IMG/VR virus record: IMGVR_UViG_3300024999_000057
Coordinates: 38,670 to 102,669 of that record
Length of the DNA stretch: 64,000 nucleotides
Source of the DNA: a virus
Strand: one strand, 5' to 3'
This document shows positions 12,273 through 51,107 of the stretch, in pieces (position 1 is the stretch's first letter; every line of letters starts with the position of its first letter). A program made the translations under genes and the position numbers. Below the pieces are notes generated by a model, which was not told the DNA's origin, searched no databases, and was given only the letters and a program-made list of their open reading frames with translations.

Positions 12273-12546
12273 TTACTGCCTCCCACTGAAACGTTTCCTC
12301 GTTCAAGTAGACCTCGTAACCAGGAACGTCTCCTTCCCAATTCACGAGGAATCCTTTAGGCCTCTCGCCGCCATTCCAGCAGCCTACTTGGTAGAACTTC
12401 CCTTCGTGCCCGAAGACGATATAGGTGCCCTTGCCCTTGGGTTCTTCGGGGTCCCACGAAAACGTAAGCTCCCGAAGTTCATACCCTTCCGGAACGATCT
12501 GGCCTGCGAGGGCAATGATGTCGTCCTTGGGAAAATATTTGGTCAT
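12262..12546 (-). CDS. hypothetical protein
   Basis: Start MTKYFPK with GGAGG RBS overlapping the previous stop. Confidence 0.6.
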   Translation of the reverse strand: MTKYFPKDDIIALAGQIVPEGYELRELTFSWDPEEPKGKGTYIVFGHEGKFYQVGCWNGGERPKGFLVNWEGDVPGYEVYLNEETFQWEAVNEN

Positions 12547-13547
12547 TTGTCCCACCTCCACAATTTGGATTTGTTGTAGTCGAATTTGCCCTGTGTGAAC
12601 CCGATGGTCGCGAATCCGCGCACCCATTTCAGCCCGGTGGCTCTGTTGTTCAGGTAGTAAGGCTGGTCCATGCACGAGCAACCCGTTTCGATGTACGTTG
12701 CACCCATGCTGTCGTAGGAGCCAAGCTGGTGTGAGTGCCCGATCACAAAGGCGTTGAAGTCGATCCCCTGCTTAGATATGGCCCCTGCAGCACCAATTCC
12801 GGTCCTCATCGGGACTACCGTGAAGCGGGACGGGTGGGCGAAAATGGTGTCCTTAACCTTGAGCCACCAGTTGTGGGCGTAGTGTACGTTCTCAAAGTGC
12901 TCCGACACGTTAGCCAGCAGATCGGCCTTGATTAGGAACTTCATGCACTCGTATTGCAGGTTCCGCTGACAATAGCGCTCTACAACGTCATCGTGATTAC
13001 CTCGTACAAGAAGCACTTGCTCGAAGTTGCTGCTGAACCACTGGATCATTTTCACGAGTTGCCCGTACTCGATCTCAGGATCTACGTGGACATTTTTGGC
13101 GTGCTTGGAGAAGAAGTCGCCGTGCGTGATATCTCCGTTGAGTACCACAACCTTCACGCCGCGCTTCTGAGCCTCACGAACCGCAAACGTGATCATCTCG
13201 GTGTTGGCATAAGGGATCTCAATGTCAGAGAGCACCAGAATTTCAAACGTCTGGTACTTGCTGAGAATGTTGTCGATTTCCTCTTGGAACTGCTGGGCGC
13301 GGATGATGTTTCCGTACAACTTATCCTCGTTGAGGTAGTCGTCCGTCAGCACTAGCGCGTCTGCACTGTTAATTTTTGAAGCCTCGTACAAGCGCTTAGC
13401 TTCCTCCCAACTCCCGAAAACCCTCATGTATGGAGCTTCGGTCACGTTGAACTCGGACCGCATCTGCCTTCTGGTGGGAATTGCTCCGTGTCTGTCCTCG
13501 TACTGCTGGATCAGATCCAGAAGATACTCTTTCGTGTAACTACTCAA
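12543..13547 (-). CDS. metallophosphoesterase with N-terminal HTH
   Basis: SDIE, NGDITH, RGNHD, FAHP, GHSH; N-terminal ...RVFGSWEEAK HTH. Confidence 0.85.
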   Translation of the reverse strand: MSSYTKEYLLDLIQQYEDRHGAIPTRRQMRSEFNVTEAPYMRVFGSWEEAKRLYEASKINSADALVLTDDYLNEDKLYGNIIRAQQFQEEIDNILSKYQTFEILVLSDIEIPYANTEMITFAVREAQKRGVKVVVLNGDITHGDFFSKHAKNVHVDPEIEYGQLVKMIQWFSSNFEQVLLVRGNHDDVVERYCQRNLQYECMKFLIKADLLANVSEHFENVHYAHNWWLKVKDTIFAHPSRFTVVPMRTGIGAAGAISKQGIDFNAFVIGHSHQLGSYDSMGATYIETGCSCMDQPYYLNNRATGLKWVRGFATIGFTQGKFDYNKSKLWRWDK

Positions 13548-13555
13548 TTTGGCTC

Positions 13556-13981
13556 CTATTCAGATGTGAATTCATCTGGGCGAAATTCAGAAATAATAAG
13601 TTCCGCCCTTGGGTTTTCCTTGTCGATTCCGCCGAACTTGTACTCGATCTCCGGGATGAACGTGTAGTTATCGTCCTCCAGGAGCTTCAGTTCAATCAGC
13701 GCGTCATCTGCGAATTTCTGTACCACCGCTCCGATGTTTGCCAGATCGAACAGTCGCTTCGTCGAGTAGAAAATCGTGTAGGTGAATTTGTACGGAGGCT
13801 TGCCTAGCTTGCCCTCAGCCTTCTCGACTGCCTTCGCTACGATTTCCTTGTACAAGATCTTCAGCGCGTTGCTCTCGTGGTGCTGCCAGTTGCGGTAATT
13901 ATTTAGTCCGAGCGAATACTTCTTCCCTGGCTTCGTCTTCCTTGGGATGGTCACCGTTAGTGGTAATATCAGTTGATACAT
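13556..13981 (-). CDS. rusA: RusA-like Holliday junction resolvase
   Basis: RLFDLANI...KFADDAL...LEDDN...DKENPRAEL. Confidence 0.8.
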   Translation of the reverse strand: MYQLILPLTVTIPRKTKPGKKYSLGLNNYRNWQHHESNALKILYKEIVAKAVEKAEGKLGKPPYKFTYTIFYSTKRLFDLANIGAVVQKFADDALIELKLLEDDNYTFIPEIEYKFGGIDKENPRAELIISEFRPDEFTSE

Positions 13982-14477
13982 ACTTGTACGCCTTGCCCAG
14001 CTTGATTCTACTAATTGTGGTTTGGGTTACCCCAAATTGTTTAGCTAGATCCCTGCCGGTTCCGTTGATGGAGAAATCTGATTTTTTAATTATCAGCACT
14101 TGCTCCAAGGTTAGTTTGGTGTTGAAGTTTCTCTCGCCGGTAGCACTCCTATTTCTAGTAACTCTGTCGTTCACGTTGTCTTGAGTTGTCCCTATTAGAA
14201 GATGTTCGGGGTTAACACAAAGAGGGTTGTCGCACGTATGCCTAACAACTTTGCCCGTAGGATCTTCACCCTTCAGAAAAATAACGGATAGTCTGTGTGC
14301 AAGCCTGTATTTTCCCCAAAGTTTGTAGAATCCATACCCGTTACTATTAATTGTCCCTCTCCACCGCCAGCATTCATCCGGCCCTCTTTGCTCGATCAAC
14401 GTCTTGAATTTTTCTACAGTGTTACTTGGTCGCCCTACTTGCCCTCCAGGGTTCCTAATTCTCTTCGCTATCCTCAT
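13899..14477 (-). CDS. HNH homing endonuclease with C-terminal HTH
   Basis: CWRWRG, AHRLS, RHTCDNPLCVNPEHL, DNVND, LAKQFGVTQTTISRI; AAGGAG RBS before MRIAKR. Confidence 0.9.
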   Translation of the reverse strand: MRIAKRIRNPGGQVGRPSNTVEKFKTLIEQRGPDECWRWRGTINSNGYGFYKLWGKYRLAHRLSVIFLKGEDPTGKVVRHTCDNPLCVNPEHLLIGTTQDNVNDRVTRNRSATGERNFNTKLTLEQVLIIKKSDFSINGTGRDLAKQFGVTQTTISRIKLGKAYKYVSTDITTNGDHPKEDEAREEVFARTK

Positions 14478-15990
14478 CTCCTTTAATTTCCACTGGCAGA
14501 AATCGCCAGCATCCGTCTTCTCTCGCTTCGATCCGGTGCCCCTTGTATTTATAAGGCACCATCTCAAGCATTTCAGGTTCCCACGACGATTTCCGCCGTT
14601 TCTTGCTCATCACACCCTTGGCTACGATCCAGTTCCCAACTCCATTGTGCTCAAAATAATACTTCATGTTTTTGTCGCAGATCGCACAGATCCCGGCGCC
14701 ATGTGAAGGAGCATTTGTGCCCCCACAAAGGGTGCATTTTTCCAGCCGGGTGTGTTTTCCATGCAGCCTGTATCTTCGCCAAGGGGCCTTGTCCCAGAGG
14801 ATCTTCCTACCAACACCGATCTTGGTCCCGCCTACTTTCAAGTAGAGGAATTCCAAGAGCTTGCCTTTCGCCGGCTTGATGTTGTTCAGGAGAGCGTTGT
14901 CCCTTCCCGCGAAGCTGAAAGCTACTCGGAAGAGATCCCCGTTGAACCAAACTAAAAACCCTTTGGCGTTCCCGCCTACGTGCCAGAATCGTTCTACGAT
15001 TCCCACGGTCACCCTGACCTCAACCACATGAGATTCCCCGGTTCTGGCGGTATCCTGGTCGGTCAGCGTGAGGTACTCGCAATCCGAGTGCTCCATGACC
15101 TTGACGACTTCGCCCAAAACTTCCTCTTCCCGAAATGCGAGGCCCACATAATTGGGCGTGATCTGTGTCAAGAGGTTGTTGTCTTGAAACCTGCGCAGCT
15201 TCTCTACTCGCTCGGGAAACGGGGTCGTGGGCTTGCCATTGAGGGTCAAGGCAAACTCCTTCAGATTGTCGAAGTAATCGACTGGGTGAAACACGGTCCT
15301 TCCTGAATTCAACCGCCCCGCGTACCCCGTCAGGGTAAATCGTGGAGTTCCGATGTACTGCATATCCACGGGAAGTAATGGCTTAATTCCAACTAATTTT
15401 CCTGCTTCACACTCAAATGACCTAGTTGATCTGGGCTCCTTGGAAACCACCCCCAGCCTCATGTCGGGGGCCATAACAGCGGAGATGGCGACCGGGTAGT
15501 TCAACGCGGCGAAGCTTGTCTGGAGGGCCTCAGGTGCCTTATAAATTTCGAAGGTGTTAACCACACCAAGGTCGAGCGAGGTCTGAATCTCCATGACGGG
15601 CAATCCTTTGGTAAAACTTTTTGAAACTAGCGAGAGGTAAAACTCGCGGTCGATCCTGCTGGTCTTCGCTAGAAATCGAATTAACTCTGACTCCCTCGTG
15701 CGAGTCACAGTTTTCCGGTTGAAGAACCTGACGACTTCCAGAAATCCACCGAATGATGCCTCAGAAATTTCTAGTTCCGGGACTGAGTGGTACCTGGAGT
15801 CGTCGATGGCCTTGAACCGAAAATTCAACATGCAGAACCAGCAGGCGAAAGTGAGGAGCCATTCGGATTCCTCTGGAAGCTTCAGAACCCCCTCAGCGAA
15901 TTGCCTCCGTTTTTCCTTAGGTGACCTGAGTTCAACCAAGGAATTCCTGAAGTTCAAAACTTCTTCGATGTTGGAAAGTTCGATTTTCAT
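14455..15990 (-). CDS. inactive ATP-dependent DNA ligase paralog with C-terminal Zn finger
   Basis: Colinear similarity to the ligase at 28551-29948 with KxDG and EGxxxK lost; CTLC-x12-CAIC. Confidence 0.65.
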   Translation of the reverse strand: MKIELSNIEEVLNFRNSLVELRSPKEKRRQFAEGVLKLPEESEWLLTFACWFCMLNFRFKAIDDSRYHSVPELEISEASFGGFLEVVRFFNRKTVTRTRESELIRFLAKTSRIDREFYLSLVSKSFTKGLPVMEIQTSLDLGVVNTFEIYKAPEALQTSFAALNYPVAISAVMAPDMRLGVVSKEPRSTRSFECEAGKLVGIKPLLPVDMQYIGTPRFTLTGYAGRLNSGRTVFHPVDYFDNLKEFALTLNGKPTTPFPERVEKLRRFQDNNLLTQITPNYVGLAFREEEVLGEVVKVMEHSDCEYLTLTDQDTARTGESHVVEVRVTVGIVERFWHVGGNAKGFLVWFNGDLFRVAFSFAGRDNALLNNIKPAKGKLLEFLYLKVGGTKIGVGRKILWDKAPWRRYRLHGKHTRLEKCTLCGGTNAPSHGAGICAICDKNMKYYFEHNGVGNWIVAKGVMSKKRRKSSWEPEMLEMVPYKYKGHRIEAREDGCWRFLPVEIKGDEDSEEN

Positions 15991-18221
15991 TGCTGAATTG
16001 ATGTCGTTCCGTCCTCGTGTTTAGTAGCTCTGATTATGCTCGTGTAGGTCATCGGCAGCGCCAGTTCGGAGTGAGCGATAATGGCGATGCAGCGGCCCTG
16101 CTCCTTCAGGTAGCCCAGCACCTCAAAAAGTCCAGCCTTCCCCTCTTCATCCAACGACCCGAAGATTTCATCGAGGCAAAGCACGTTGAACGAAGAGGAG
16201 CCTGTGGCTTCCAAAATTTCCAACGTAGCGAAGAGGCAGGACATCTTGACCCTCGCCTTCTCACCCTCCGACCAGTTCGCCCACTTGACCGTCTTGTGGC
16301 TGTCGGTGACCGTGAATTGGACCTCACCATCTTCATCGAGATAGAAGACGCACGCGATTCTTCCCGAGGTGATCATCTCCGAATATTTCCGGATCAGGAT
16401 GTTGAAGCTCCTCAGGAACCTGTCGATTTTCCTGACTCGGTAACCCTTCGGCCCGAGGATTCCCAACCAATTCCTGATGTCCTCCAAGGTACTTTCTGCC
16501 TGAAACAACTCATTTCTGGAAGCGTCCAATCGGAGCAATAAATCCCGGTTGTTTTCCTCGACCTGACGATTAAGTTCTTTTCGGGCTCTCGATAAAGCGT
16601 TGTGGTCCTTGGCCTTGGTTACTTCAGTATCAATTTGGGAAACCTCGTTTTTTACTGAAATCAACTTAGAAACCAATTCGCCCAACTTCAAATCAATAGC
16701 CATCAAAACCAGAGGATCAACCTCAACCGCAGGACCAACTTCAGCTTTCAACCGGTTCAACTCGAACTGCCTCTGCTCGAACTGCAGGTGCTCCATCCCG
16801 ATTAATACCGCTTCCTGCAAGTTCAATTGAATCCGACGCTTGCGATCCTCGAAGCAACTCACATCAAGCTGAGCTTGATTCCCGTCGATCTTGGTATCCG
16901 GGTTGGCTTCGAGCTTTTCAAGCTCCTGAGTTTTCCTGGTGATTTCCTGCCAAGCCTTCTGGATGAGGCGGTACTTTGAGAGGGAGGACTCGCATTTTTC
17001 GATGAGAGCATTGTCGGCTTCGATCTGAGCAGAAAGCTCTTCGATCTGCCCTTCAAACTGCGTCGAGTCAACCGAATGTCCGCAGGTAGGGCAGGCACAG
17101 GACTTCGCGGAATTCTCAAGGCTCAGGCGCTCCGATCCCTTCTGACTTCGGGCAACCTGCGTCTTCGTCTTGAGGTTCTCGATCTTCCTCAGTTGCTCCT
17201 CAGCGAACTCTGCTTCAACTTCAGGAGTTTCCAATTTGGAAAGTTCTTCCCTCAATGGAAGCAGCCGCTCGATCTGAGGCTTGGCCTTTTCGTACCTAGC
17301 GAGAACCCCTTGAGCCTCTTGAAGCTTGGATTCGGTGAACCTGAGTTCTTCCTGAAGCTTAGTTGCTCTGCTTTGTGCGTCTTCCTTCGATAAAGAGGGG
17401 AGTTCGAAGGTTTTAATCTCGTCTTCTAACTCCTGAATCTTCTCTTGTGTCGCTTGGTTCGCCTCGGCTTTTTTCAATAGCTCTGTGAGATCGCTTCGAT
17501 CTCTGGAGAGTTCCAGTTGCTGAGCTTTCAAGTTATCAACTTCAACCCAAAGATTCTTCAGTCTGGATTCAAGCTCAGCAACCTCGACTTCCTCAAGTTC
17601 AGGCTGAGGATGAACCACGCCCTGCTCCATCAACTCGATCTGCTTCTGGAGCATCAGGATCTTGCCATGCTTTCCTGCGAGAGCCTTTTCCTTCTCCTTC
17701 ATCCGGTCGAATTCAGCGTCGAGTTCATCCAGGCGATTGACTCTGGAGATGAACTTTTTCCTCTCGCCATCGGAGGAGGATTCGAGGAGATTCAAGGAGC
17801 TTTTCGGGCTCTGGTAAACGAGATCCACGAAAGTTGAATAGTCGGTTTCGAGGACCTCTTCGAGGAACTTCAGGTTGTCCGGGATTCGCTTCAGGTGCCG
17901 CTTGTGCTTCGCTCCGTTGACCTCTTCGTAAATCTCGATCTCACCGGTCTTCTTCGAGTTCTTGACATACCACTCGGAAGCGCCCTTGGTGAACCAGATT
18001 TCGATCTCATAAGGCTGGCCTGTGATCTCGTTATTCACGTCGTCTACTTTGGTGCCCTTCGGGTTCTTGTTGAACAGGCCCTGGATCAGCGTCAGGAAAA
18101 GGCTCGTCTTGCTGGCGCCGTTGTTGCCGATGACCGAGTGAATTCCATTCTCGAACGTGAAGTCGAGGTACTTGTAGGCGAAGCAGTCTCGGGCCACTAC
18201 TCGGGTGAACTCGACTACCAC
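15987..18221 (-). CDS. sbcC: SbcC/Rad50/gp46-like SMC ATPase
   Basis: GNNGASKTS Walker A, coiled coil, CPTCG zinc hook, WSEGE signature, LCLDE Walker B, IIAH. Confidence 0.92.
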   Translation of the reverse strand: MVVEFTRVVARDCFAYKYLDFTFENGIHSVIGNNGASKTSLFLTLIQGLFNKNPKGTKVDDVNNEITGQPYEIEIWFTKGASEWYVKNSKKTGEIEIYEEVNGAKHKRHLKRIPDNLKFLEEVLETDYSTFVDLVYQSPKSSLNLLESSSDGERKKFISRVNRLDELDAEFDRMKEKEKALAGKHGKILMLQKQIELMEQGVVHPQPELEEVEVAELESRLKNLWVEVDNLKAQQLELSRDRSDLTELLKKAEANQATQEKIQELEDEIKTFELPSLSKEDAQSRATKLQEELRFTESKLQEAQGVLARYEKAKPQIERLLPLREELSKLETPEVEAEFAEEQLRKIENLKTKTQVARSQKGSERLSLENSAKSCACPTCGHSVDSTQFEGQIEELSAQIEADNALIEKCESSLSKYRLIQKAWQEITRKTQELEKLEANPDTKIDGNQAQLDVSCFEDRKRRIQLNLQEAVLIGMEHLQFEQRQFELNRLKAEVGPAVEVDPLVLMAIDLKLGELVSKLISVKNEVSQIDTEVTKAKDHNALSRARKELNRQVEENNRDLLLRLDASRNELFQAESTLEDIRNWLGILGPKGYRVRKIDRFLRSFNILIRKYSEMITSGRIACVFYLDEDGEVQFTVTDSHKTVKWANWSEGEKARVKMSCLFATLEILEATGSSSFNVLCLDEIFGSLDEEGKAGLFEVLGYLKEQGRCIAIIAHSELALPMTYTSIIRATKHEDGTTSIQQ

Positions 18222-18926
18222 TCCTCTTCCTCCTTTTTAAGCTTAATGGATTCAGTGCATTCAAATTGAGCGATGTCTTCAATTCCAAGCAAACACTCCG
18301 CGCACAATTTGTAAGTGGCACCAGGAGCTGATTGTCTCTGGATTTTAAAAATTATTTCTTCTGGCCCAGCACCACAATTATCACAGACCCCTAGTCCCAC
18401 TCCTCTTCCTCCTGAGGAATCGTGTAGGATTTCTCCTTAACGACCCTGCCCACGAAGAGGCCAAGGAAAAGGACTTGGAAGGCGAACCCCCTCAACGACG
18501 GAATGAAGAGGAAGGGGAAAATCATGTCGTCCAGGTAGCCCATCGCGGAAAACTCGAAGTCGATTCCGAAGAGCCTTAACCTGAGAGCTACGGTCCTGTT
18601 GGGCTCGTTCAGGGAACCTTCGATTTCAAATAAATCTGAGAATTTCATTTTAGTCCTCCGAACACAAACGACTCCCCGAAATCGGTAATCAAGATGTAAG
18701 TCCTACCAGGGCGCACGTAACACTTCTCCTCTAGCCACAGGCGCAGGAGCACGACAACTTCTTCCCAAGTTTCTGGTTCGTCAGTGTCGTAGTAAGAAGG
18801 CCACGGATTGAACCAATCAACCATCTGCATAACCACAGGCTTACTTCCGTCGAAGCAGAACCCCTCCGGGTATTCGAGGGGAAGTTCGAACACGCGGCAA
18901 AAATTTGTTTCTTCTGTGGGCCTCAC
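18215..18926 (-). CDS. three small hypothetical genes (18215-18400 Zn ribbon, 18391-18648 membrane, 18645-18926)
   Basis: Overlapping start/stop chain between sbcD and sbcC. Confidence 0.55.
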
Positions 18927-19297
18927 ACCACCTCCCCTGAGAAGAGCAACTTCTCAACTGAATCCCAGTCCACGAAAGGACGTTCGAATTCATCAAGCCC
19001 TTTGCAAAGGGGAACCCCTAAAGCCGCGTCGTCGATGTAGAGGTGTGCGTAGATTTTGGGGCTTTGGGTCCAGCGTTTCTGCCCCGGATTCTCGTTGATG
19101 CTCCAGAGTTCAATTTCGTTTTCCTTGAACCAAGCCACAGCGTCTTCCAATTCTTTGCCACTCCGCATCGTGTAGAGGATGAGTTGGTGGCCTTCGCCAG
19201 TGAGCTTTTTAAGAACGGGCTGCGCTCCGATTTCTCTCCCAATCTTCGGGTACTCGTGCGTTACGCAGGTACCGTCGAAATCAACTGCGATTATCAA
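18923..19297 (-). CDS. HAD-superfamily phosphatase
   Basis: IAVDFDGT, LYTMR, KIYAHLYIDD. Confidence 0.88.
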   Translation of the reverse strand: MIIAVDFDGTCVTHEYPKIGREIGAQPVLKKLTGEGHQLILYTMRSGKELEDAVAWFKENEIELWSINENPGQKRWTQSPKIYAHLYIDDAALGVPLCKGLDEFERPFVDWDSVEKLLFSGEVV

Positions 19298-20292
19298 GCT
19301 GCCTCCTTGTAGACCATCATCATCCGGTCGATTTTATTTTCGTCGTACCCAAGTTCCTTCAGATAGGAAGCCAGTTCCTCGTCGAGCGAGGCGTTGATGA
19401 TTTCTTCTTGCTCTCCTGAATCCTGAACCAAAACCTGCAAAGCCTCAGGCACCTTCACCAACTTGACGTTGGATTGAGGCGCTGAAATGGTCTTCAACTC
19501 AGGCACGGTGCCGGTGACCTCGATCCGGTAGAAGTCGGTTTCGTTTAAAGCAGGAAATTCCTCATCCGCTCGAATTCGGATCTGAATTAGTGAGGGCAAA
19601 TTTGTGGCTATTCGCTCGTACTTCGCGGTGCCCTTGTCAAGGGTCAGGAGGACAACTCCGGTATCGACCGAGGTTTGAAACTCCTTGTTGACCGGGTGGT
19701 TCGTGTAGACGAGCTTGCCTACTGAGTAGGGGGCGTGAATATCTGAACAAATAGCCAAATCGAAAGGCTCCAGCAAATGATCGACATCAATTTCCTCCTT
19801 GACGAACTGGTTGTAGTTGCATCGGAAGTGAGAGATCAAAATGTTCAGCTTGGTGCCAGTCACTGTGGGTCCAGAATAGGTGCCCAAGGAACAATGATTT
19901 ACAAAGTGCAGCGTGCAATTTTCGTCAGGCAGGTGATGAACCCAAGGCTTCGCTTGGTAATTCAGCTTGATCGTCTTGTCCTTGCCCATGTCCAGGTACT
20001 GGAAAGTGTCCTTGCCTGGCCCGATCTGTTCGTGATTTCCAGAGATCAAGTAGACTTCGATACCGGCCTCACGACACATCCTGAAGAAGATAAAAGCAAG
20101 CTCTTGCTCCTCAAGCTCGGGCTCACATTTCTCCCAAAGATCCCCTGCTATGATCAACTCCGCGTGGTTGTGCAGGCAGGCCTCGATCAGGAACTCGAAG
20201 AGTTGCATGTAGCGGTCGATCTGCCAAGCGAAGGGAGCCTCTTTGCGAAGCCAAATGTGCCAATCCCCGCTGCAAAGAAATTTTCTAGCCAC
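19294..20292 (-). CDS. sbcD: SbcD/Mre11/gp47-like nuclease
   Basis: GDWH, AGDLWE, SGNHE, SDIH; GTG start with GGAGG RBS; near sbcC. Confidence 0.88.
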   Translation of the reverse strand: MARKFLCSGDWHIWLRKEAPFAWQIDRYMQLFEFLIEACLHNHAELIIAGDLWEKCEPELEEQELAFIFFRMCREAGIEVYLISGNHEQIGPGKDTFQYLDMGKDKTIKLNYQAKPWVHHLPDENCTLHFVNHCSLGTYSGPTVTGTKLNILISHFRCNYNQFVKEEIDVDHLLEPFDLAICSDIHAPYSVGKLVYTNHPVNKEFQTSVDTGVVLLTLDKGTAKYERIATNLPSLIQIRIRADEEFPALNETDFYRIEVTGTVPELKTISAPQSNVKLVKVPEALQVLVQDSGEQEEIINASLDEELASYLKELGYDENKIDRMMMVYKEAA

Positions 20293-20695
20293 CCGACCTC
20301 CCCACTCCCATCGCACATTTTTTGAACTCCATTTCCTGCAACGGCTTCAACGTGGGATCACAAGGAAGGCTGGTAAGCCCGAAGCAGTTCAGCCTCACGT
20401 CGGTTTCGACCCAGACTTCATCTACGAGGCCTCCACGCATAACCTGATAACCAGGAACCACAAATCCTTCCGCCTTCTCCAAAAGCCCAACAAGAAGCTC
20501 GCCTTCGATGATCAGCTTGTTGTCCAAGACCTTCGCTGAGTCCACGAAGCCAACCTTGACGTGCTGGTTGAAACCATCAAGAATCGGAATCTCCTTCCCT
20601 TGTACGGCCTCAGCCATCTGGTAGAGAGCTTCAGGCGCAAACCTGTCTCCTTTGAGATCTACTGCGGTTGATGCTGCTTCTGCGATGAATCTCAT
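20285..20695 (-). CDS. degenerate HK97-type prohead-protease-like protein
   Basis: AASTAVDLKGDRFAPEAL...IPILDGF...KVGFV...LIIEGEL...VPGY...FGLTSLPCDP; catalytic His and Ser positions not conserved. Confidence 0.5.
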   Translation of the reverse strand: MRFIAEAASTAVDLKGDRFAPEALYQMAEAVQGKEIPILDGFNQHVKVGFVDSAKVLDNKLIIEGELLVGLLEKAEGFVVPGYQVMRGGLVDEVWVETDVRLNCFGLTSLPCDPTLKPLQEMEFKKCAMGVGRSGG

Positions 20696-28550: not shown

Positions 28551-29948
28551 CTAGCCCTCCACGTTGGTACAAGTCTTGTCATCCCGCAGCCGCTGCCACA
28601 CAGGGAATCTTAAAGAGCCGTCAGCCGTGACTTCCTGGCCTGAGACCTCACCGATGAGCCCGACGAGCCTCCCACACAAATGCTCCACCCACATTTCATA
28701 GCGTTGAGCATCATCAAATCCAGTCCCGCAGTCGGTCTTGATGGTCCCGCAGTCCGACGCCATCTCCACCCCGCCGAGCATTCCTTGGTACTTACCCTCA
28801 CCTTCATAGGCACCTACTATTCTGAGGTCCATAGTAAAAAACTCTTTTACTTTTAAGAGCTTGCTGCTCCTCTTGAACTCGTACTCGGAGTCAAGGAGCT
28901 TGACCATGACACCTTCGCCTGGATTTAACCGATACTCCACCTCCTTCCCCTTCGAATTCAGAACTGAATACTTCTCCCCACCTTTCGTCCTGACGCGGTG
29001 AAAAAGCTCCTTCACTTCTGCTTCGTTGTTCGCTAAGGCGTTCGGCAGCAGGATCAGGTTATTGAAGGACTTCTCCTGACGCTCGAAGAGAGCTGCGAGT
29101 TCGAGCTTTCTGTCGGACAACGGGGCTGATTTCTTCTGCTCGAAGAAAGTTTCGATGGGCAACAAATCCCAGCAGTAATAACCGAGGTACTCCCTCACTT
29201 CGTCCGAAGTAGTTGATTCTGCTCGGATTAGGGCCTTGCCTCCTTCATAAACCCAGTTCCCATCCTTGCACTTCAAGAAAGTTTTGTTGTCCGGGTTGAA
29301 TCTTTTAGCGAGAATTTCCCCGTCGAGAACAAAATCCGTTTCTGGTCTCAACTTCAGGATCTCCGCAGCGATCACTCCGCGCTCATCGAATTCATGCCCC
29401 TCTCTCGAAAAGAATGTCACCTTGCCATCTTTGCAGACCGCGATGCACCGGAGCCCATCGAGCTTCTCCTCCACTAAAACGGGATATTTCAAAGTGGGCC
29501 AGAGATTCTTCGGCGTCTTGCCCCCTTTGTAGATCGGCTGGGCGAGCATCACGTCGAACGTCGGAATCAGTTTGGGAAACGCGGCGTTAATCGTGGACTC
29601 GTCGATTCCGGCTTTCAGATCGCGAGTAACTATTTTTGCGACCCAGGACGCTCCCTCTTCGGTACATCTTTTCATCAGATTTCTGACCATGTTTTTCGCA
29701 GCGGTCGAGCCGGTTTCGTGCTTCGCAAGCAGAAGGAGCAGCTCTTCCAAGTCCTGTGTGATGTCGGGCTGGACCTCGTTGTAAGTTGAGGGGAACTCGA
29801 TCTGCTTGATCCGGTACGTGATAAACTTATTGTAGGTCAAGCTCAAGAGCTTCCTGAGATTCGGAGAATCGTTCCTTTTTAAAATCTCGATCTTCTCGTT
29901 TCTTGAAGCAGTTTCTTGGATTTGTTGAAAAACTTCAAACTCTTTCAA
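28551..29948 (-). CDS. ATP-dependent DNA ligase
   Basis: EEKLDGLR, FSREG, LDGEI, WDLL, EGVMVK, LLKVK, GTGF, LRFPVW; TTG start with GGAGG RBS. Confidence 0.95.
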   Translation of the reverse strand: MKEFEVFQQIQETASRNEKIEILKRNDSPNLRKLLSLTYNKFITYRIKQIEFPSTYNEVQPDITQDLEELLLLLAKHETGSTAAKNMVRNLMKRCTEEGASWVAKIVTRDLKAGIDESTINAAFPKLIPTFDVMLAQPIYKGGKTPKNLWPTLKYPVLVEEKLDGLRCIAVCKDGKVTFFSREGHEFDERGVIAAEILKLRPETDFVLDGEILAKRFNPDNKTFLKCKDGNWVYEGGKALIRAESTTSDEVREYLGYYCWDLLPIETFFEQKKSAPLSDRKLELAALFERQEKSFNNLILLPNALANNEAEVKELFHRVRTKGGEKYSVLNSKGKEVEYRLNPGEGVMVKLLDSEYEFKRSSKLLKVKEFFTMDLRIVGAYEGEGKYQGMLGGVEMASDCGTIKTDCGTGFDDAQRYEMWVEHLCGRLVGLIGEVSGQEVTADGSLRFPVWQRLRDDKTCTNVEG

Positions 29949-30130
29949 TTGGCCTCCAAAAGTACGCACATAGCCCCTACCATACTGAACGCTGCGGTTA
30001 TTCCGGCCCATACTTGCAAGCCACGCTGAACTGACTCACCGGTAACTGTGTCAGCACCCAGACTAAACCCGAAACTGACCAAGGCCCCTGCTCCCAGGAT
30101 GCAGGCCATCAACCCAATTTTCTTAATCAT
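29945..30130 (-). CDS. small membrane protein
   Basis: Two hydrophobic segments, GAGGAG RBS. Confidence 0.55.
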   Translation of the reverse strand: MIKKIGLMACILGAGALVSFGFSLGADTVTGESVQRGLQVWAGITAAFSMVGAMCVLLEAN

Positions 30131-38063: not shown

Positions 38064-39467
38064 TCATGTGGCCTCCGCTTCTACTTCCTCTGTATCAACC
38101 ACTCCGGTGTCCTTTACGATGCCCTCTAAAATCTTGAAATCTAGCGTCTTGTTCTTGAAGATTTTCATGGAGCCGGTTTCGAGATTATCGACTCGGACGC
38201 ACACGCCTTCTCTGATATGGCTCTGGTCGATAGGATCTGCGATGTCCACTTTGTCAGTCAAAATTTCCACCCAATCCTTCAAGGCAACCACGTTATCCTC
38301 AGTTCGGACCAGTCGGGTTCGACACCAATCCGCCGCTTTTACCTCAGGCACATGTTTCACCCCAGCTTTCCTGCAGCGCTCCTTCACAACTCCCCAAGGC
38401 ATCTCCAGCATCCCGCCGTCTTCACCCATCAGGGCGATCCGGTAGACGTAGATCTCGCACTCGGCAGGCAAGCAGCCGTACTTGTAGGTCATGGTCTTAC
38501 CAAAGCGCTTCACGAAATCCTTACCCATCTTCAAGCAATCGACGGTGCTCATGATCGGCCTGCCTGATTCCTCGAAGCCTACGATCTCGTAGTACCAGAC
38601 CTCATTCTGCTTGAGGTGAGGCGCAAGCCGTTGGTGGCACTTCTCGCGGAAGTCCTTATCGACCTCATTGACTTCGCCTCGGACCTCGCCCTTGATCACC
38701 CTCCGCGTGCCGTAGACCGACTTCCAGATTTCGTAGGAAGGCCTTTCACGAAGTTGCTCCTTCTTCAGGTCCGACAGGAAGAAGTTGAAGAGGTGCTTCT
38801 CGGGACCGAAGAATGCGTCAGCGAATGCGAAGTAAAGTTCCTCACGCCATTTCAGCGGGCGCTCTTCTTTGACCCTCAGCTTCGAACTTCTGCCCGAGGT
38901 GCCGTGTAATTTAGCCGTCAGCGTCACCAGGCCCATCAACTCGTCAGGCCTTGCGTGCCTGAGTTGGTCGGTTTCGAGGTGCTCAGGGAACATCCTCTTC
39001 AATGACTCGTTCAGCTTGGGTGTTTTCGGCTTGTTTGCTGCGGCTGCTCTCTTGGTAGCCTCGGTCACGAACTTGTTGCAGATCGAGATTCCACCCAGTT
39101 CTACGAACTTGGTCCCGACTTCCAGCTTCTTCAGGTCGTAACCCGTGAAGGCCAGTGAGTGCAGCCCGATCACGAAAGCCTCCGACTTCTCGCCACGAAA
39201 CTTCTGAGCACGGACCCTGCGACTCGCATCGAAGTAGCCGCCTTTCCTCTCTCCGGTCTCTGGGTCCGTGTAGCCAACCAAATCGTTGGCCTTAGCGAAC
39301 ACCTCGGAGATCTGCCCGTCATCCGGGAACAGCACCACGACTTCGCCTTCCTTGGCCTCAAGGCCTACGATCACCTGGTAGCCGAGGCACGTAGCCACGT
39401 TCAGGCGATCAGCGTTCGAGTGCTTCCTCACATTTTCCAACTTCGAAATTACTGCGGTATAAGCCAT
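38064..39467 (-). CDS. RNA ligase, DRB0094/Rnl5-like
   Basis: N-terminal HSNADRL OB domain; TAKLHGTS motif I, YYEIVG, REGVCVR, FKNK. Confidence 0.85.
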   Translation of the reverse strand: MAYTAVISKLENVRKHSNADRLNVATCLGYQVIVGLEAKEGEVVVLFPDDGQISEVFAKANDLVGYTDPETGERKGGYFDASRRVRAQKFRGEKSEAFVIGLHSLAFTGYDLKKLEVGTKFVELGGISICNKFVTEATKRAAAANKPKTPKLNESLKRMFPEHLETDQLRHARPDELMGLVTLTAKLHGTSGRSSKLRVKEERPLKWREELYFAFADAFFGPEKHLFNFFLSDLKKEQLRERPSYEIWKSVYGTRRVIKGEVRGEVNEVDKDFREKCHQRLAPHLKQNEVWYYEIVGFEESGRPIMSTVDCLKMGKDFVKRFGKTMTYKYGCLPAECEIYVYRIALMGEDGGMLEMPWGVVKERCRKAGVKHVPEVKAADWCRTRLVRTEDNVVALKDWVEILTDKVDIADPIDQSHIREGVCVRVDNLETGSMKIFKNKTLDFKILEGIVKDTGVVDTEEVEAEAT

Positions 39468-49094: not shown

Positions 49095-51107
49095 TTATTC
49101 CGCCGCTTTAATATTCAGCAGCGGCCTGATGTGGTCGATCACACTCACGGTGACTCCCTCCTGCTTTGCCAGCACGTAATTGATGTCCTTGTAGGCGGCG
49201 GGCGCCTCATCCAGGATTGAGCGGTTGGTGGAGCAGATGATGCCTTGCATCCCGTCCTTGAACTCCTGATAATCCAGCGTCTTCTTCGCTTGGTTCCTTC
49301 CCATGACCCTACCGCAGCCGTGAGATGCCGAGGAGAGATAATAGGACTCGCCCAAGCCTTCCGTGATGTACACGCCATCTCGCATGTTGGCTGGGATCAC
49401 ACCAAGCTGCCCCAGGTCCGCAGGAGTCGCTCCTTTGCGGTGCAGGACGCCCTCAGGAGTTACGACGGCGTGATTGTGGTTCTCGTTGATGACGCGGTTC
49501 GCTAACTGGTTAGGGTGCAGCCCTAGGCATTGTAGCACTTGGGTCATCATCCGCAGCCGATTCTCCAGTGCCCACTCCAGAGCGAAATTCATGTCCTGAA
49601 GATAAGCCTGTCCAAGCTCAGACTCCAGAGGGAACAACCGGCCCTTCTTCATGTACCAACCGCCGATTGTATGGCCTACGTTCCTGGACCCCGAGTGAAT
49701 CGTGACGCAGAGGTTGCCCTTCTGGTTCTCGCCAAGCTCTATGAAATGATTTCCGCCACCTAGCGTTCCGAGTTGGGTGCCAACTTTAGCCTGGACTCGC
49801 TGGTGCGTGTTAACATCCATCACGTCTGAAAACAGCACCCAATCGTAGCCTTGGTCCTTTGTATGTGAGGAGAACCCCGTAGGAATCACCTTCAGGATGT
49901 CGTTGTAGATGCCTCGGAGGGTAGTCACGCTCGCAGCCTTGATGCCTGTGTCTAACGAGCACATTCCACAGTTTCCAGTGATAAAAATCTTGTTGTTGCG
50001 CCTAGCTACGAAATATCCCGAAGGAACCGTGAAGCAATATTCTTTACCGTCTTGAGACGACACGAAGTTAATCGCCTCGTTTTTGGTTAGTCCCACATAC
50101 TCGTTTTTGGTTTTGTAAACCCACCAAGTTGAGTTCCAATCTTTCCCCTCGTAAGAGTGGCAGTGTATGCCAGTTCTGGCCCCCGCCACCGTAAAGGCAT
50201 ACTGAATTAAATCCGCATTTTGCTTGCAAGTAGCGGAAAAAGCTTCGTGCTCACCCACTGTACCATCCCAATGCAAACATTCTTCTGCAATAATTCTGAG
50301 TTGCGCTTCGCTACTTGCCCAGAAAATAGACAGGTCCTTAGTGACTCGATAGTCCCTGAAGTATATGTAGGTGCTGCCATCCACACCTACGGTTAACTCG
50401 TAATTTATTCCCGCCTGGTTAAGCAGTTCCTGGGCTCTAATTATTTTCCTCTCTTTTCTGAAGTGTAGTTCAGTGGTGCCTTGCTTTCTTATGTGCCCAT
50501 CCGCACTCACCATGACAATTACCCTGAGGATAGCATCAGTCATATCCAAATCAGGATTACTTAATTTGAACGTGGTTTTTATTCCGCCTTGTAGTCCTTT
50601 ACCTAGAGACCTGTGCTTTTCCACTAGTTCTTTAGTTGCATACACTTTGGGCTTATACCCCCGCGACTTGTATCCATGCCAGAACAGCACCTTGTGACCC
50701 GAAGACAGCATTTGATCCATGCCATCCTTGTGCCACAGATGGTAGAAGCCCTCTGATGGTTGCACCACATAACGCTGGGGTACTACAAACGATGCTTCAT
50801 CGGTAGTCGGGTTGTACTGAAGTACCTCGCCACCCCCGTATTCTGAAATTTTAACCCAACCACTAGGAGACAAAAACTCAGTGTCCTTATCAAGGCACCC
50901 GATATCGTATCCGACGAAAGAAGGAGAGATCATCCCCTCTAAAAGAGCGACTCCTCCAATCGGCAGGTCGTAACCTGCATGGACATCCGGCATGATCGCC
51001 AGCTTCTTCAGGCAATCCAATTCCAGTACATCAAAAATCTGCTGCTGAGCAGACTGCTCAATTTCCTCCAGTGGAACCGTCGAGAACAACCTGTTGAGCT
51101 TGCTCAT
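49095..51107 (-). CDS. rtcB: RtcB RNA ligase interrupted by an intein
   Basis: MPDVHAGY, GYDIG|CG, GTLGGGNHFIE, HSGSR, NHNH, HRKGA, SHGCGR, DEAPAAYK. Confidence 0.95.
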   Translation of the reverse strand: MSKLNRLFSTVPLEEIEQSAQQQIFDVLELDCLKKLAIMPDVHAGYDLPIGGVALLEGMISPSFVGYDIGCLDKDTEFLSPSGWVKISEYGGGEVLQYNPTTDEASFVVPQRYVVQPSEGFYHLWHKDGMDQMLSSGHKVLFWHGYKSRGYKPKVYATKELVEKHRSLGKGLQGGIKTTFKLSNPDLDMTDAILRVIVMVSADGHIRKQGTTELHFRKERKIIRAQELLNQAGINYELTVGVDGSTYIYFRDYRVTKDLSIFWASSEAQLRIIAEECLHWDGTVGEHEAFSATCKQNADLIQYAFTVAGARTGIHCHSYEGKDWNSTWWVYKTKNEYVGLTKNEAINFVSSQDGKEYCFTVPSGYFVARRNNKIFITGNCGMCSLDTGIKAASVTTLRGIYNDILKVIPTGFSSHTKDQGYDWVLFSDVMDVNTHQRVQAKVGTQLGTLGGGNHFIELGENQKGNLCVTIHSGSRNVGHTIGGWYMKKGRLFPLESELGQAYLQDMNFALEWALENRLRMMTQVLQCLGLHPNQLANRVINENHNHAVVTPEGVLHRKGATPADLGQLGVIPANMRDGVYITEGLGESYYLSSASHGCGRVMGRNQAKKTLDYQEFKDGMQGIICSTNRSILDEAPAAYKDINYVLAKQEGVTVSVIDHIRPLLNIKAAE
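49971..50897 (-). mobile_element. 309-aa intein with LAGLIDADG homing endonuclease
   Basis: Starts CLDKDTEFLSPSGW, ends YCFTVPSGYFVARRNNKIFITGN before extein Cys; SADG and HWDG blocks. Confidence 0.92.

Follow-up and report, generated by a model that had tools for sequence, protein, structure and literature searches.

The locus and its genes

The DNA analysed here is a stretch of 64,000 nucleotides (henceforth referred to as 'the window') from a groundwater phage, represented by IMG/VR virus record IMGVR_UViG_3300024999_000057 (102.7 kb, completeness rated at 91 %), and its subject is a minus-strand gene at positions 14455-15990 that encodes a protein of 511 amino acids (henceforth referred to as the 'ligase-fold protein'). 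A reading of the sequence made before any database search (the 'original prediction') had described this gene as a catalytically dead DNA-ligase paralog with a zinc finger that is translationally coupled to the gene of an SbcC/Rad50-like ATPase. The open reading frame (ORF) is indeed intact, and the TGA of the SbcC gene and the ATG of the ligase-fold gene share bases as ATGA (...cagcaATGAaaatc...), as had been noticed; no promoter-like or terminator-like site was found at this junction on the coding strand. Upstream of SbcC lie three small ORFs followed by the SbcD/Mre11-like gene, and downstream of the ligase-fold gene lie genes for an HNH endonuclease, a RusA-like resolvase and a metallophosphoesterase. 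An intact ATP-dependent DNA ligase is encoded elsewhere in the window; it carries the catalytic signatures K183 LDGLR, D230 GE and K387xK389, and is on record as 465 amino acids from a start at 29948. The phage also encodes a family A polymerase, a primase, DnaB-like and Dda-like helicases, NrdD, an RNA ligase and RtcB, and the closest cultured relatives of its SbcC are found in T5-like phages (~105-120 kb) at 22-34 % identity. The features of the locus are collected in Table 1.

Table 1. Positions in the window of the ligase-fold gene, its domains and motif residues, and associated genes
Feature	Position	Strand	Details
Gene of the ligase-fold protein (P0001), without catalytic residues	14455..15990	-	Intact ORF of 511 amino acids; stop codon 14455-14457
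SbcC/Rad50-like ATPase, 744 amino acids, CPTCG zinc hook	15987..18221	-	phrog_77, E 2e-68
SbcD/Mre11-like nuclease, first gene of the triad SbcD-SbcC-ligase-fold	19294..20316	-	phrog_100, E 1e-15
Intact ATP-dependent DNA ligase (P0022)	28551..30011	-	PF01068, PF14743, PF04675; phrog_114, E 9e-101
Compact seven-helix DNA-binding domain of T4-ligase type, residues 1-150	15541..15990	-	hhalign columns 8-150 and VIA-align
Most conserved family block, residues 45-67, LLTFaCWFcxxNxRFKaID.S.Y	15790..15858	-	Counterpart of the alpha3-alpha4 loop in the T4 DNA-binding domain
Nucleotidyltransferase-fold domain, residues 151-318	15037..15540	-	VIA-align and motif table; motifs I, III, IV and V degenerate
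OB-fold domain, residues 319-400	14791..15036	-	hhalign; conserved G330, W336, G344, W348, N350, F360, G362
Family-specific basic C-terminal module, residues 401-511	14458..14790	-	Predicted Cys3-4 zinc ribbon, three helices, beta-hairpin, short acidic tail
Val172 codon, position of the motif I adenylated lysine	15475..15477	-	T4 K159; window ligase K183
Motif I D161, G162 (T4)			A174, P175; variable in the family
Motif III Asp (window ligase D230)			T221; V/A/L in the family
Motif III Glu (T4 E217; window ligase E232)			Y223; Y/F/L in the family
Motif III Gly			G222, kept in 49/51
Motif V K365, K367 (T4; window ligase K387, K389)			No aligned counterpart

Descent from T4-type ligases and loss of the catalytic residues

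The ligase-fold protein is invisible to standard annotation. Searches of Pfam (E up to 1), PHROGs (E up to 0.01), NCBIfam and PADLOC assigned it to no family, and the curated ligase models (PF01068, PF04679, PF14743; PHROG 114), all of which the window's intact ligase passes, do not recognise it. A profile search of PDB sequences returned chance zinc-finger rows only (E >=0.5), and no relative was found by tblastn in 50,697 GenBank phage records or in a scan of one genome per prokaryote species. A word-indexed search yielded 18 homologues at 33-93 % identity, and an exhaustive profile search across 1.84 billion representatives gave 61 matches; ~50 of these cover the full length, and no ligase is among them. 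The resulting family alignment, which comprises 51 members at 22-92 % identity, was compared with a set of 34 phage ATP-dependent ligases. The 18 homologues already aligned with the ligases in hhalign over 347 collinear columns (probability 93.7 %, E 2e-7), and with all 51 members the match rose to 96.7 % (E 4.3e-10) in local and 98.0 % (E 1.5e-12) in global mode. The AlphaFold2 model of the protein (predicted local distance difference test score, pLDDT, 86) tells the same story: its top Foldseek match in the PDB is T4 DNA ligase on DNA (6dt1, E 1.6e-11), with nothing but ATP-dependent ligases and capping enzymes ranked after it, whole ligases align to it in VIA-align with Z scores of 9.5-11, and its top matches among predicted viral structures (BFVD) are all viral ligases. 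Phage ligase clusters are also its nearest language-model neighbours (0.88), which we treat as a lead only. Since profile comparison and structure matches agree, homology to ATP-dependent DNA ligases, with a predicted fold of DNA-binding domain (DBD), nucleotidyltransferase (NTase) domain and OB domain, is well supported, and the family descends from a T4-type ATP-dependent DNA ligase.

The original prediction rested on a collinear alignment with the window's own ligase made by eye. At the profile level this alignment stands, whereas BLASTP between the two proteins detects nothing significant (best E 0.059). The block pairs LNYPVAIS../LKYPVLVEEK.., FTLTGY/FVLDGE and PFPERVEKL/PLSDRKLEL agree with the profile alignment. 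For LVSKSFTKGL/IVTRDLKAGI only the LVSKS/IVTRD half does, a 13-residue gap following it in hhalign; CEYLTLTD/GEGVMVKL is recovered only in the run with 18 homologues; FHPVDYF/YYCWDLL is ambiguous by 5 residues; and NTFEIYKA/PTFDVMLA is displaced by ~10 residues, hhalign pairing PVMEIQTS with PTFDVMLA instead. The word 'paralog' goes further than the data allow: at 12-15 % identity, what can be claimed is homology to T4-type phage ligases, and an origin from the phage's own ligase would be conjecture.

The closest known systems are T4 DNA ligase (gp30; 6DT1, 5WFY), which is the best structural and profile match, and related phage ligases (PF01068, PF14743, PF04675, DUF6433), with which the ligase-fold protein shares the order of seven-helix DBD, NTase and OB domains. 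The first 144 residues can be superposed on the DBD of T4 ligase (5wfy) with Z 10.6 and a root-mean-square deviation (rmsd) of 3.5 Å, covering 127/132 residues; residues 152-325 match the LigIII NTase domain (10ye_L) with Z 9.5 and rmsd 4.4 Å over 155 residues; and residues 152-402 match the NTase and OB domains of Chlorella virus ligase (1p8l) with Z 9.5. The NTase and OB folds that the original prediction expected of a dead ligase are thus present in the model. The block most conserved in the family corresponds to the loop between alpha3 and alpha4 of the T4 DBD, which runs along the DNA backbone (PMC6212786), and this backbone-contact loop is common to both proteins. T4 residues Q44, Y46 and K48 are represented in the family by N56 (43/51), R58 (R37 K4) and K60 (K18 R9), and T4 R79 and T82 by K93 (K27 R10) and T96; these counterparts of the T4 backbone contacts belong to the best-conserved part of the family.

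In marked contrast to T4 ligase, the ligase-fold protein carries ~110 additional residues that form a zinc-ribbon and helical module. The CTLC-x12-CAIC tail noticed originally corresponds to a predicted zinc ribbon of the form CxxC-x12-CxxC (C419, C422, C435 and C438; 14677-14736, minus strand), and its cysteines are present in 51, 50, 51 and 39 of the 51 members, respectively, the fourth being Thr or Ser in the other 12. Modelled alone (pLDDT 79), the module contains helices at 436-449, 460-467 and 473-477 and a hairpin at 485-499, and its net charge has a median of +4 per half. The best Foldseek rows for it are nuclear-receptor DBDs (E 1.2-7, none significant) and the best VIA-align rows are the winged helices of Stn1, YvoA and ScpB (Z only 2.0-3.1). 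A basic module with such zinc-finger (E ~1) and winged-helix (Z 2-3) neighbours, weak as these are, might be taken to indicate a transcription or replication regulator, in which the zinc ribbon and winged-helix-like tail would bind specific sequences and the ligase-like body would provide a scaffold for dimerisation or for recruiting other proteins. However, all C-terminal structural matches fall below a trustworthy threshold, selection on the ligase-like domains is at least as strong as that on the tail, which is poorly explained by a mere scaffold, and no operator-like repeat motif turned up, although no search was aimed at one. We consider such a regulator improbable.

To evaluate the catalytic centre, residue functions described for T4 ligase (PMC6212786) were transferred by way of the ligase alignment and hhalign to the columns of the 51-member family. 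As originally proposed, the adenylated lysine and the acidic catalytic residues are gone. The lysine position is occupied by V18 I15 L12 M2 A2 F1 C1 across the family, and independently of any alignment the motif KxDGxR occurs in 0/51 members as opposed to 32/34 true ligases; KxDG occurs in four members, only within the C-terminal tail. Both members of the motif III acidic pair and alignable motif V lysines are missing, and no lysine anywhere in the protein is conserved above 80 %. Where motif IIIa of ligases has the adenine-stacking aromatic, the aligned family residue is V/I/L, and the segment between motifs III and IIIa has shrunk to ~five residues; in T4 ligase this segment carries the minor-groove helix alpha11 and the loop that binds the gp45 clamp (PMC6212786), both of which are deleted here. 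K/R184 was considered as the counterpart of the 'SR.G' arginine (T4 R182) and rejected, since the larger alignment and the strand order of the model place it in the preceding turn. Because the motif I lysine, the motif III acidic residues and the motif V lysines are lost and no lysine is well conserved, the protein is predicted to be unable to work as a ligase, and self-adenylation and nick sealing would both be expected to be negative.

Some residues of the NTase domain nevertheless remain conserved, namely D238 (47/51), D311 (47/51), R261 (49/51), G222 (49/51) and L265. This conservation would be compatible with an enzyme of non-canonical chemistry that uses another nucleophile, or with a protein that traps a nucleotide signal in what used to be the adenosine monophosphate pocket, for which snurportin-1 (1xk5, Z 9.2), a non-catalytic NTase fold that binds a cap nucleotide, provides a parallel. 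Yet the family lacks a conserved Lys or His that could act as the nucleophile, hydrophobic or aromatic residues stand where the catalytic Lys and Glu would be, the adenine-stacking residue has been replaced, and R261/L265 correspond to R301/L305 of a structural helix that real ligases also keep. A non-canonical enzyme is accordingly highly improbable in our estimation.

Selection and conserved linkage to SbcCD

Loss of the catalytic motifs could also be the mark of a decaying, functionless ligase duplicate, and this explanation is already refuted. Among four sequences (the window and three relatives, at 93-95 % protein identity and with synonymous divergence, dS, of 0.19-0.44), the ratio of nonsynonymous to synonymous substitution (dN/dS) of the ligase-fold gene is 0.09-0.13, with every domain below 0.16, whereas that of SbcC in the same genomes is 0.13-0.20. 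The full-length frame is intact in ~50 clusters of a family that reaches down to 22 % identity, and the family has acquired a C-terminal domain that is both new and conserved. The neutral decay against which the original prediction was to be checked is therefore not seen. A real ligase coexists with the ligase-fold gene in the window and in 4/5 related records, among them the two 113-kb genomes that are 100 % complete. The presence of the real ligase together with the low dN/dS indicates that the ligase-fold protein is neither a replacement ligase nor a decaying copy. In the record of the L004 relative, the real ligase (G004:C1:10173-11558, 54 % identity to the window ligase) was detected as a six-frame match with one in-frame TAA, for which a sequencing error, a split gene and recoding are all conceivable causes.

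The position of the gene after SbcC, proposed as a point to check in relatives, is conserved. In every locus recovered from IMG/VR and JGI, on which the comparison of gene order rests, the genes follow the order SbcD-(small ORFs)-SbcC-ligase-fold, and five lineages, the most distant at 31 % identity, share this triad: the window group (93-95 %), L004 (43 %), L005 (32 %), L006/L019 (31 %) and L020-22 (32 %). Scans with two other subgroups of the family found no IMG/VR locus. The genes 3' of the ligase-fold gene encode RusA, an ASCH-like protein or unknown proteins depending on the lineage, so that only the triad is conserved. The proposed translational coupling holds for the window, and the ATGA overlap recurs in L001, L010 and L013, but it is not universal: SbcC and the ligase-fold gene are 9 bp apart in L006 and 178 bp apart in L005, and an extra ORF lies between them in L002 (7354-8001, 215 amino acids) and L004 (7561-7992, 143 amino acids). 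Neither inserted ORF matched a Pfam or PHROG family, and the junction seems to be an insertion hot spot. Overall, the results show that the ligase-fold protein is a ligase homologue stripped of its catalytic residues, maintained by selection and linked to SbcCD.

In the closest cultured relatives, the T5-like phages, the slot directly 3' of SbcC (D13) is occupied by gene D14, and the order D12-D13-D14-D15 parallels the order SbcD-SbcC-X-nuclease. D14 was rejected as a distant counterpart of the ligase-fold protein: it is a 160-residue PDDEXK nuclease (PF24608, E 3e-46) and its hhalign probability is 0.6 %. Where T5 has the PDDEXK protein D14 and a flap endonuclease, the window (12543-13981, minus strand, compared with L017/L018) has the RusA-like resolvase and the metallophosphoesterase.

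Three further observations concern the neighbouring genes. The HNH homing-type endonuclease gene (13899-14477, minus strand; PF13392; phrog_59, E 1e-33) probably starts at the ATG at 14477, behind an AAAGGAG site, and overlaps the final seven codons of the ligase-fold gene. It is missing from all relatives, in which RusA directly follows the ligase-fold gene and the protein has 526-528 amino acids with a longer acidic tail (GDEDESGSDEG...); the HNH insertion appears to have replaced this tail in the window phage. Just 5' of SbcC, an ORF of 85 amino acids (18391-18648, minus strand) is kept beside SbcC in relatives down to 39 % identity; it matched no Pfam or PHROG family and may be another small partner of the SbcCD module. 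Finally, the window holds an RNA-repair set consisting of the RNA ligase (phrog_968, E 6e-49; 38064-39467, minus strand) and a 670-residue PhoH-like/RtcB tRNA-splicing ligase protein (phrog_1075, E 4e-93; 49095-51107, minus strand).

A possible role beside the phage SbcCD nuclease

The explanation that we favour, and to which we assign an even chance of being correct, is that the ligase-fold protein is a non-catalytic, ligase-derived DNA binder that works with the phage SbcCD in recombination; both DNA binding and cooperation with SbcCD are inferences. In such a scheme a ligase scaffold would have been converted to a non-catalytic DNA-binding module, which would grip duplex DNA through the retained N-terminal backbone-contact loop and the added basic zinc-ribbon and helical tail. 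It would be co-produced with SbcC, often through stop-start coupling, and would act beside the Mre11-Rad50-type nuclease of the phage in recombination-dependent replication or repair, where it may direct SbcCD to certain DNA structures or curb the action of SbcCD on them. With the nick-sensing elements of the NTase domain lost, binding to duplex DNA in general or to DNA ends would be expected rather than nick recognition. A more specific version, that the protein is a dedicated third component of the phage SbcCD, namely a dead-ligase adaptor for DNA structure by which the nuclease would be loaded or held back at phage DNA ends or at intermediates of recombination, can be put forward only tentatively and is in our view doubtful. 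As such a component it would be functionally comparable to regulators of the Nbs1, CtIP and Rif2 type, but built from a dead ligase.

Several observations weigh against the role that we favour. Stop-start coupling is missing in 3/5 lineages, and strict 1:1 co-production is consequently not required. All but one of the related loci come from one groundwater sample set, so that the number of independent observations is modest. The charge of the ligase-like core is approximately neutral, and the residue register at motifs IIIa, IV and V shifts between alignment runs. In addition, T4 R182, which holds the 5'-phosphate of the nick, aligns with a variable position in the family, and neither helix alpha11 nor the K384-D112 clamp closure of T4 ligase has a conserved counterpart.

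The loss of these nick-reading residues bears equally on a different use of DNA binding, in which the protein would serve counter-defence or shield ends and nicks: a dead ligase sitting on nicks, gaps or ends, or acting as a ligase mimic, would keep host nucleases, host ligase or end-sensing defence away, and its adjacency to SbcCD would reflect shared early or middle expression. T5 genomes, those of the phages with the closest cultured SbcC relatives, carry ligatable single-strand nicks, and the related 113-kb genomes have direct terminal repeats; that the genomes of the window phage and its relatives are nicked is an assumption. The scaffold is derived from DNA ligases, which encircle DNA (PMC6212786), and TelN sets a precedent for a phage protein that tames Mre11-Rad50 at DNA ends (PMC13685816). 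However, no PADLOC or other family matched the protein, and the lineage-wide linkage is to the phage's own SbcCD rather than to variable anti-defence islands. We regard a shielding function as unlikely, and return to the non-catalytic DNA binder that works with SbcCD.

For such a protein only partial precedents were found. Catalytically inactive Lig4 has a structural, non-catalytic role in break repair (PMC9638927, PMC10858965, PMC11754673) and is likewise a ligase body that aids repair without sealing. This is a functional analogy: inactive Lig4 is an engineered or point-mutant form of a working enzyme in eukaryotic non-homologous end joining with Ku and XRCC4, whereas the loss in the ligase-fold family is natural, ancient, family-wide and found in phages beside SbcCD. 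The standalone alpha-helical ligase DBD of subgroup 2.1 jumbo phages (Iyer et al. 2021, PMC7824862), which has been proposed to bind DNA or recruit partners, is also a non-catalytic ligase derivative of phages, but consists of the DBD alone and occurs in phages without a ligase, in contrast to the three domains and zinc module that stand beside a real ligase here. The m3G-cap-binding domain of snurportin-1 derives in nature from the covalent nucleotidyltransferase fold and has no catalytic activity; it is eukaryotic, comprises only the NTase domain, binds a cap dinucleotide, and has no DBD, zinc module or link to DNA repair. None of these precedents combines full-length natural inactivation, an added zinc module and gene linkage to Mre11-Rad50.

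The family can be described as a pseudoenzyme of the ligase superfamily. The original prediction knew of no description of such a module, and full-length DNA ligases that have been inactivated naturally and are kept by selection do seem to be undescribed: the literature searches and the four profile libraries (Pfam, PHROGs, NCBIfam and PADLOC) yielded no counterpart. The finding carries a warning for annotation, in that structure-based pipelines will label the protein 'DNA ligase' despite its predicted inability to ligate. To our knowledge, no third subunit is known for the bacterial Mre11-Rad50 nuclease. If the ligase-fold protein does work with SbcCD, it would provide a case from bacterial viruses of an accessory factor for the Mre11-Rad50 nuclease, and would illustrate how the scaffold of a ligase can be put to use in recognising DNA once catalysis is lost.

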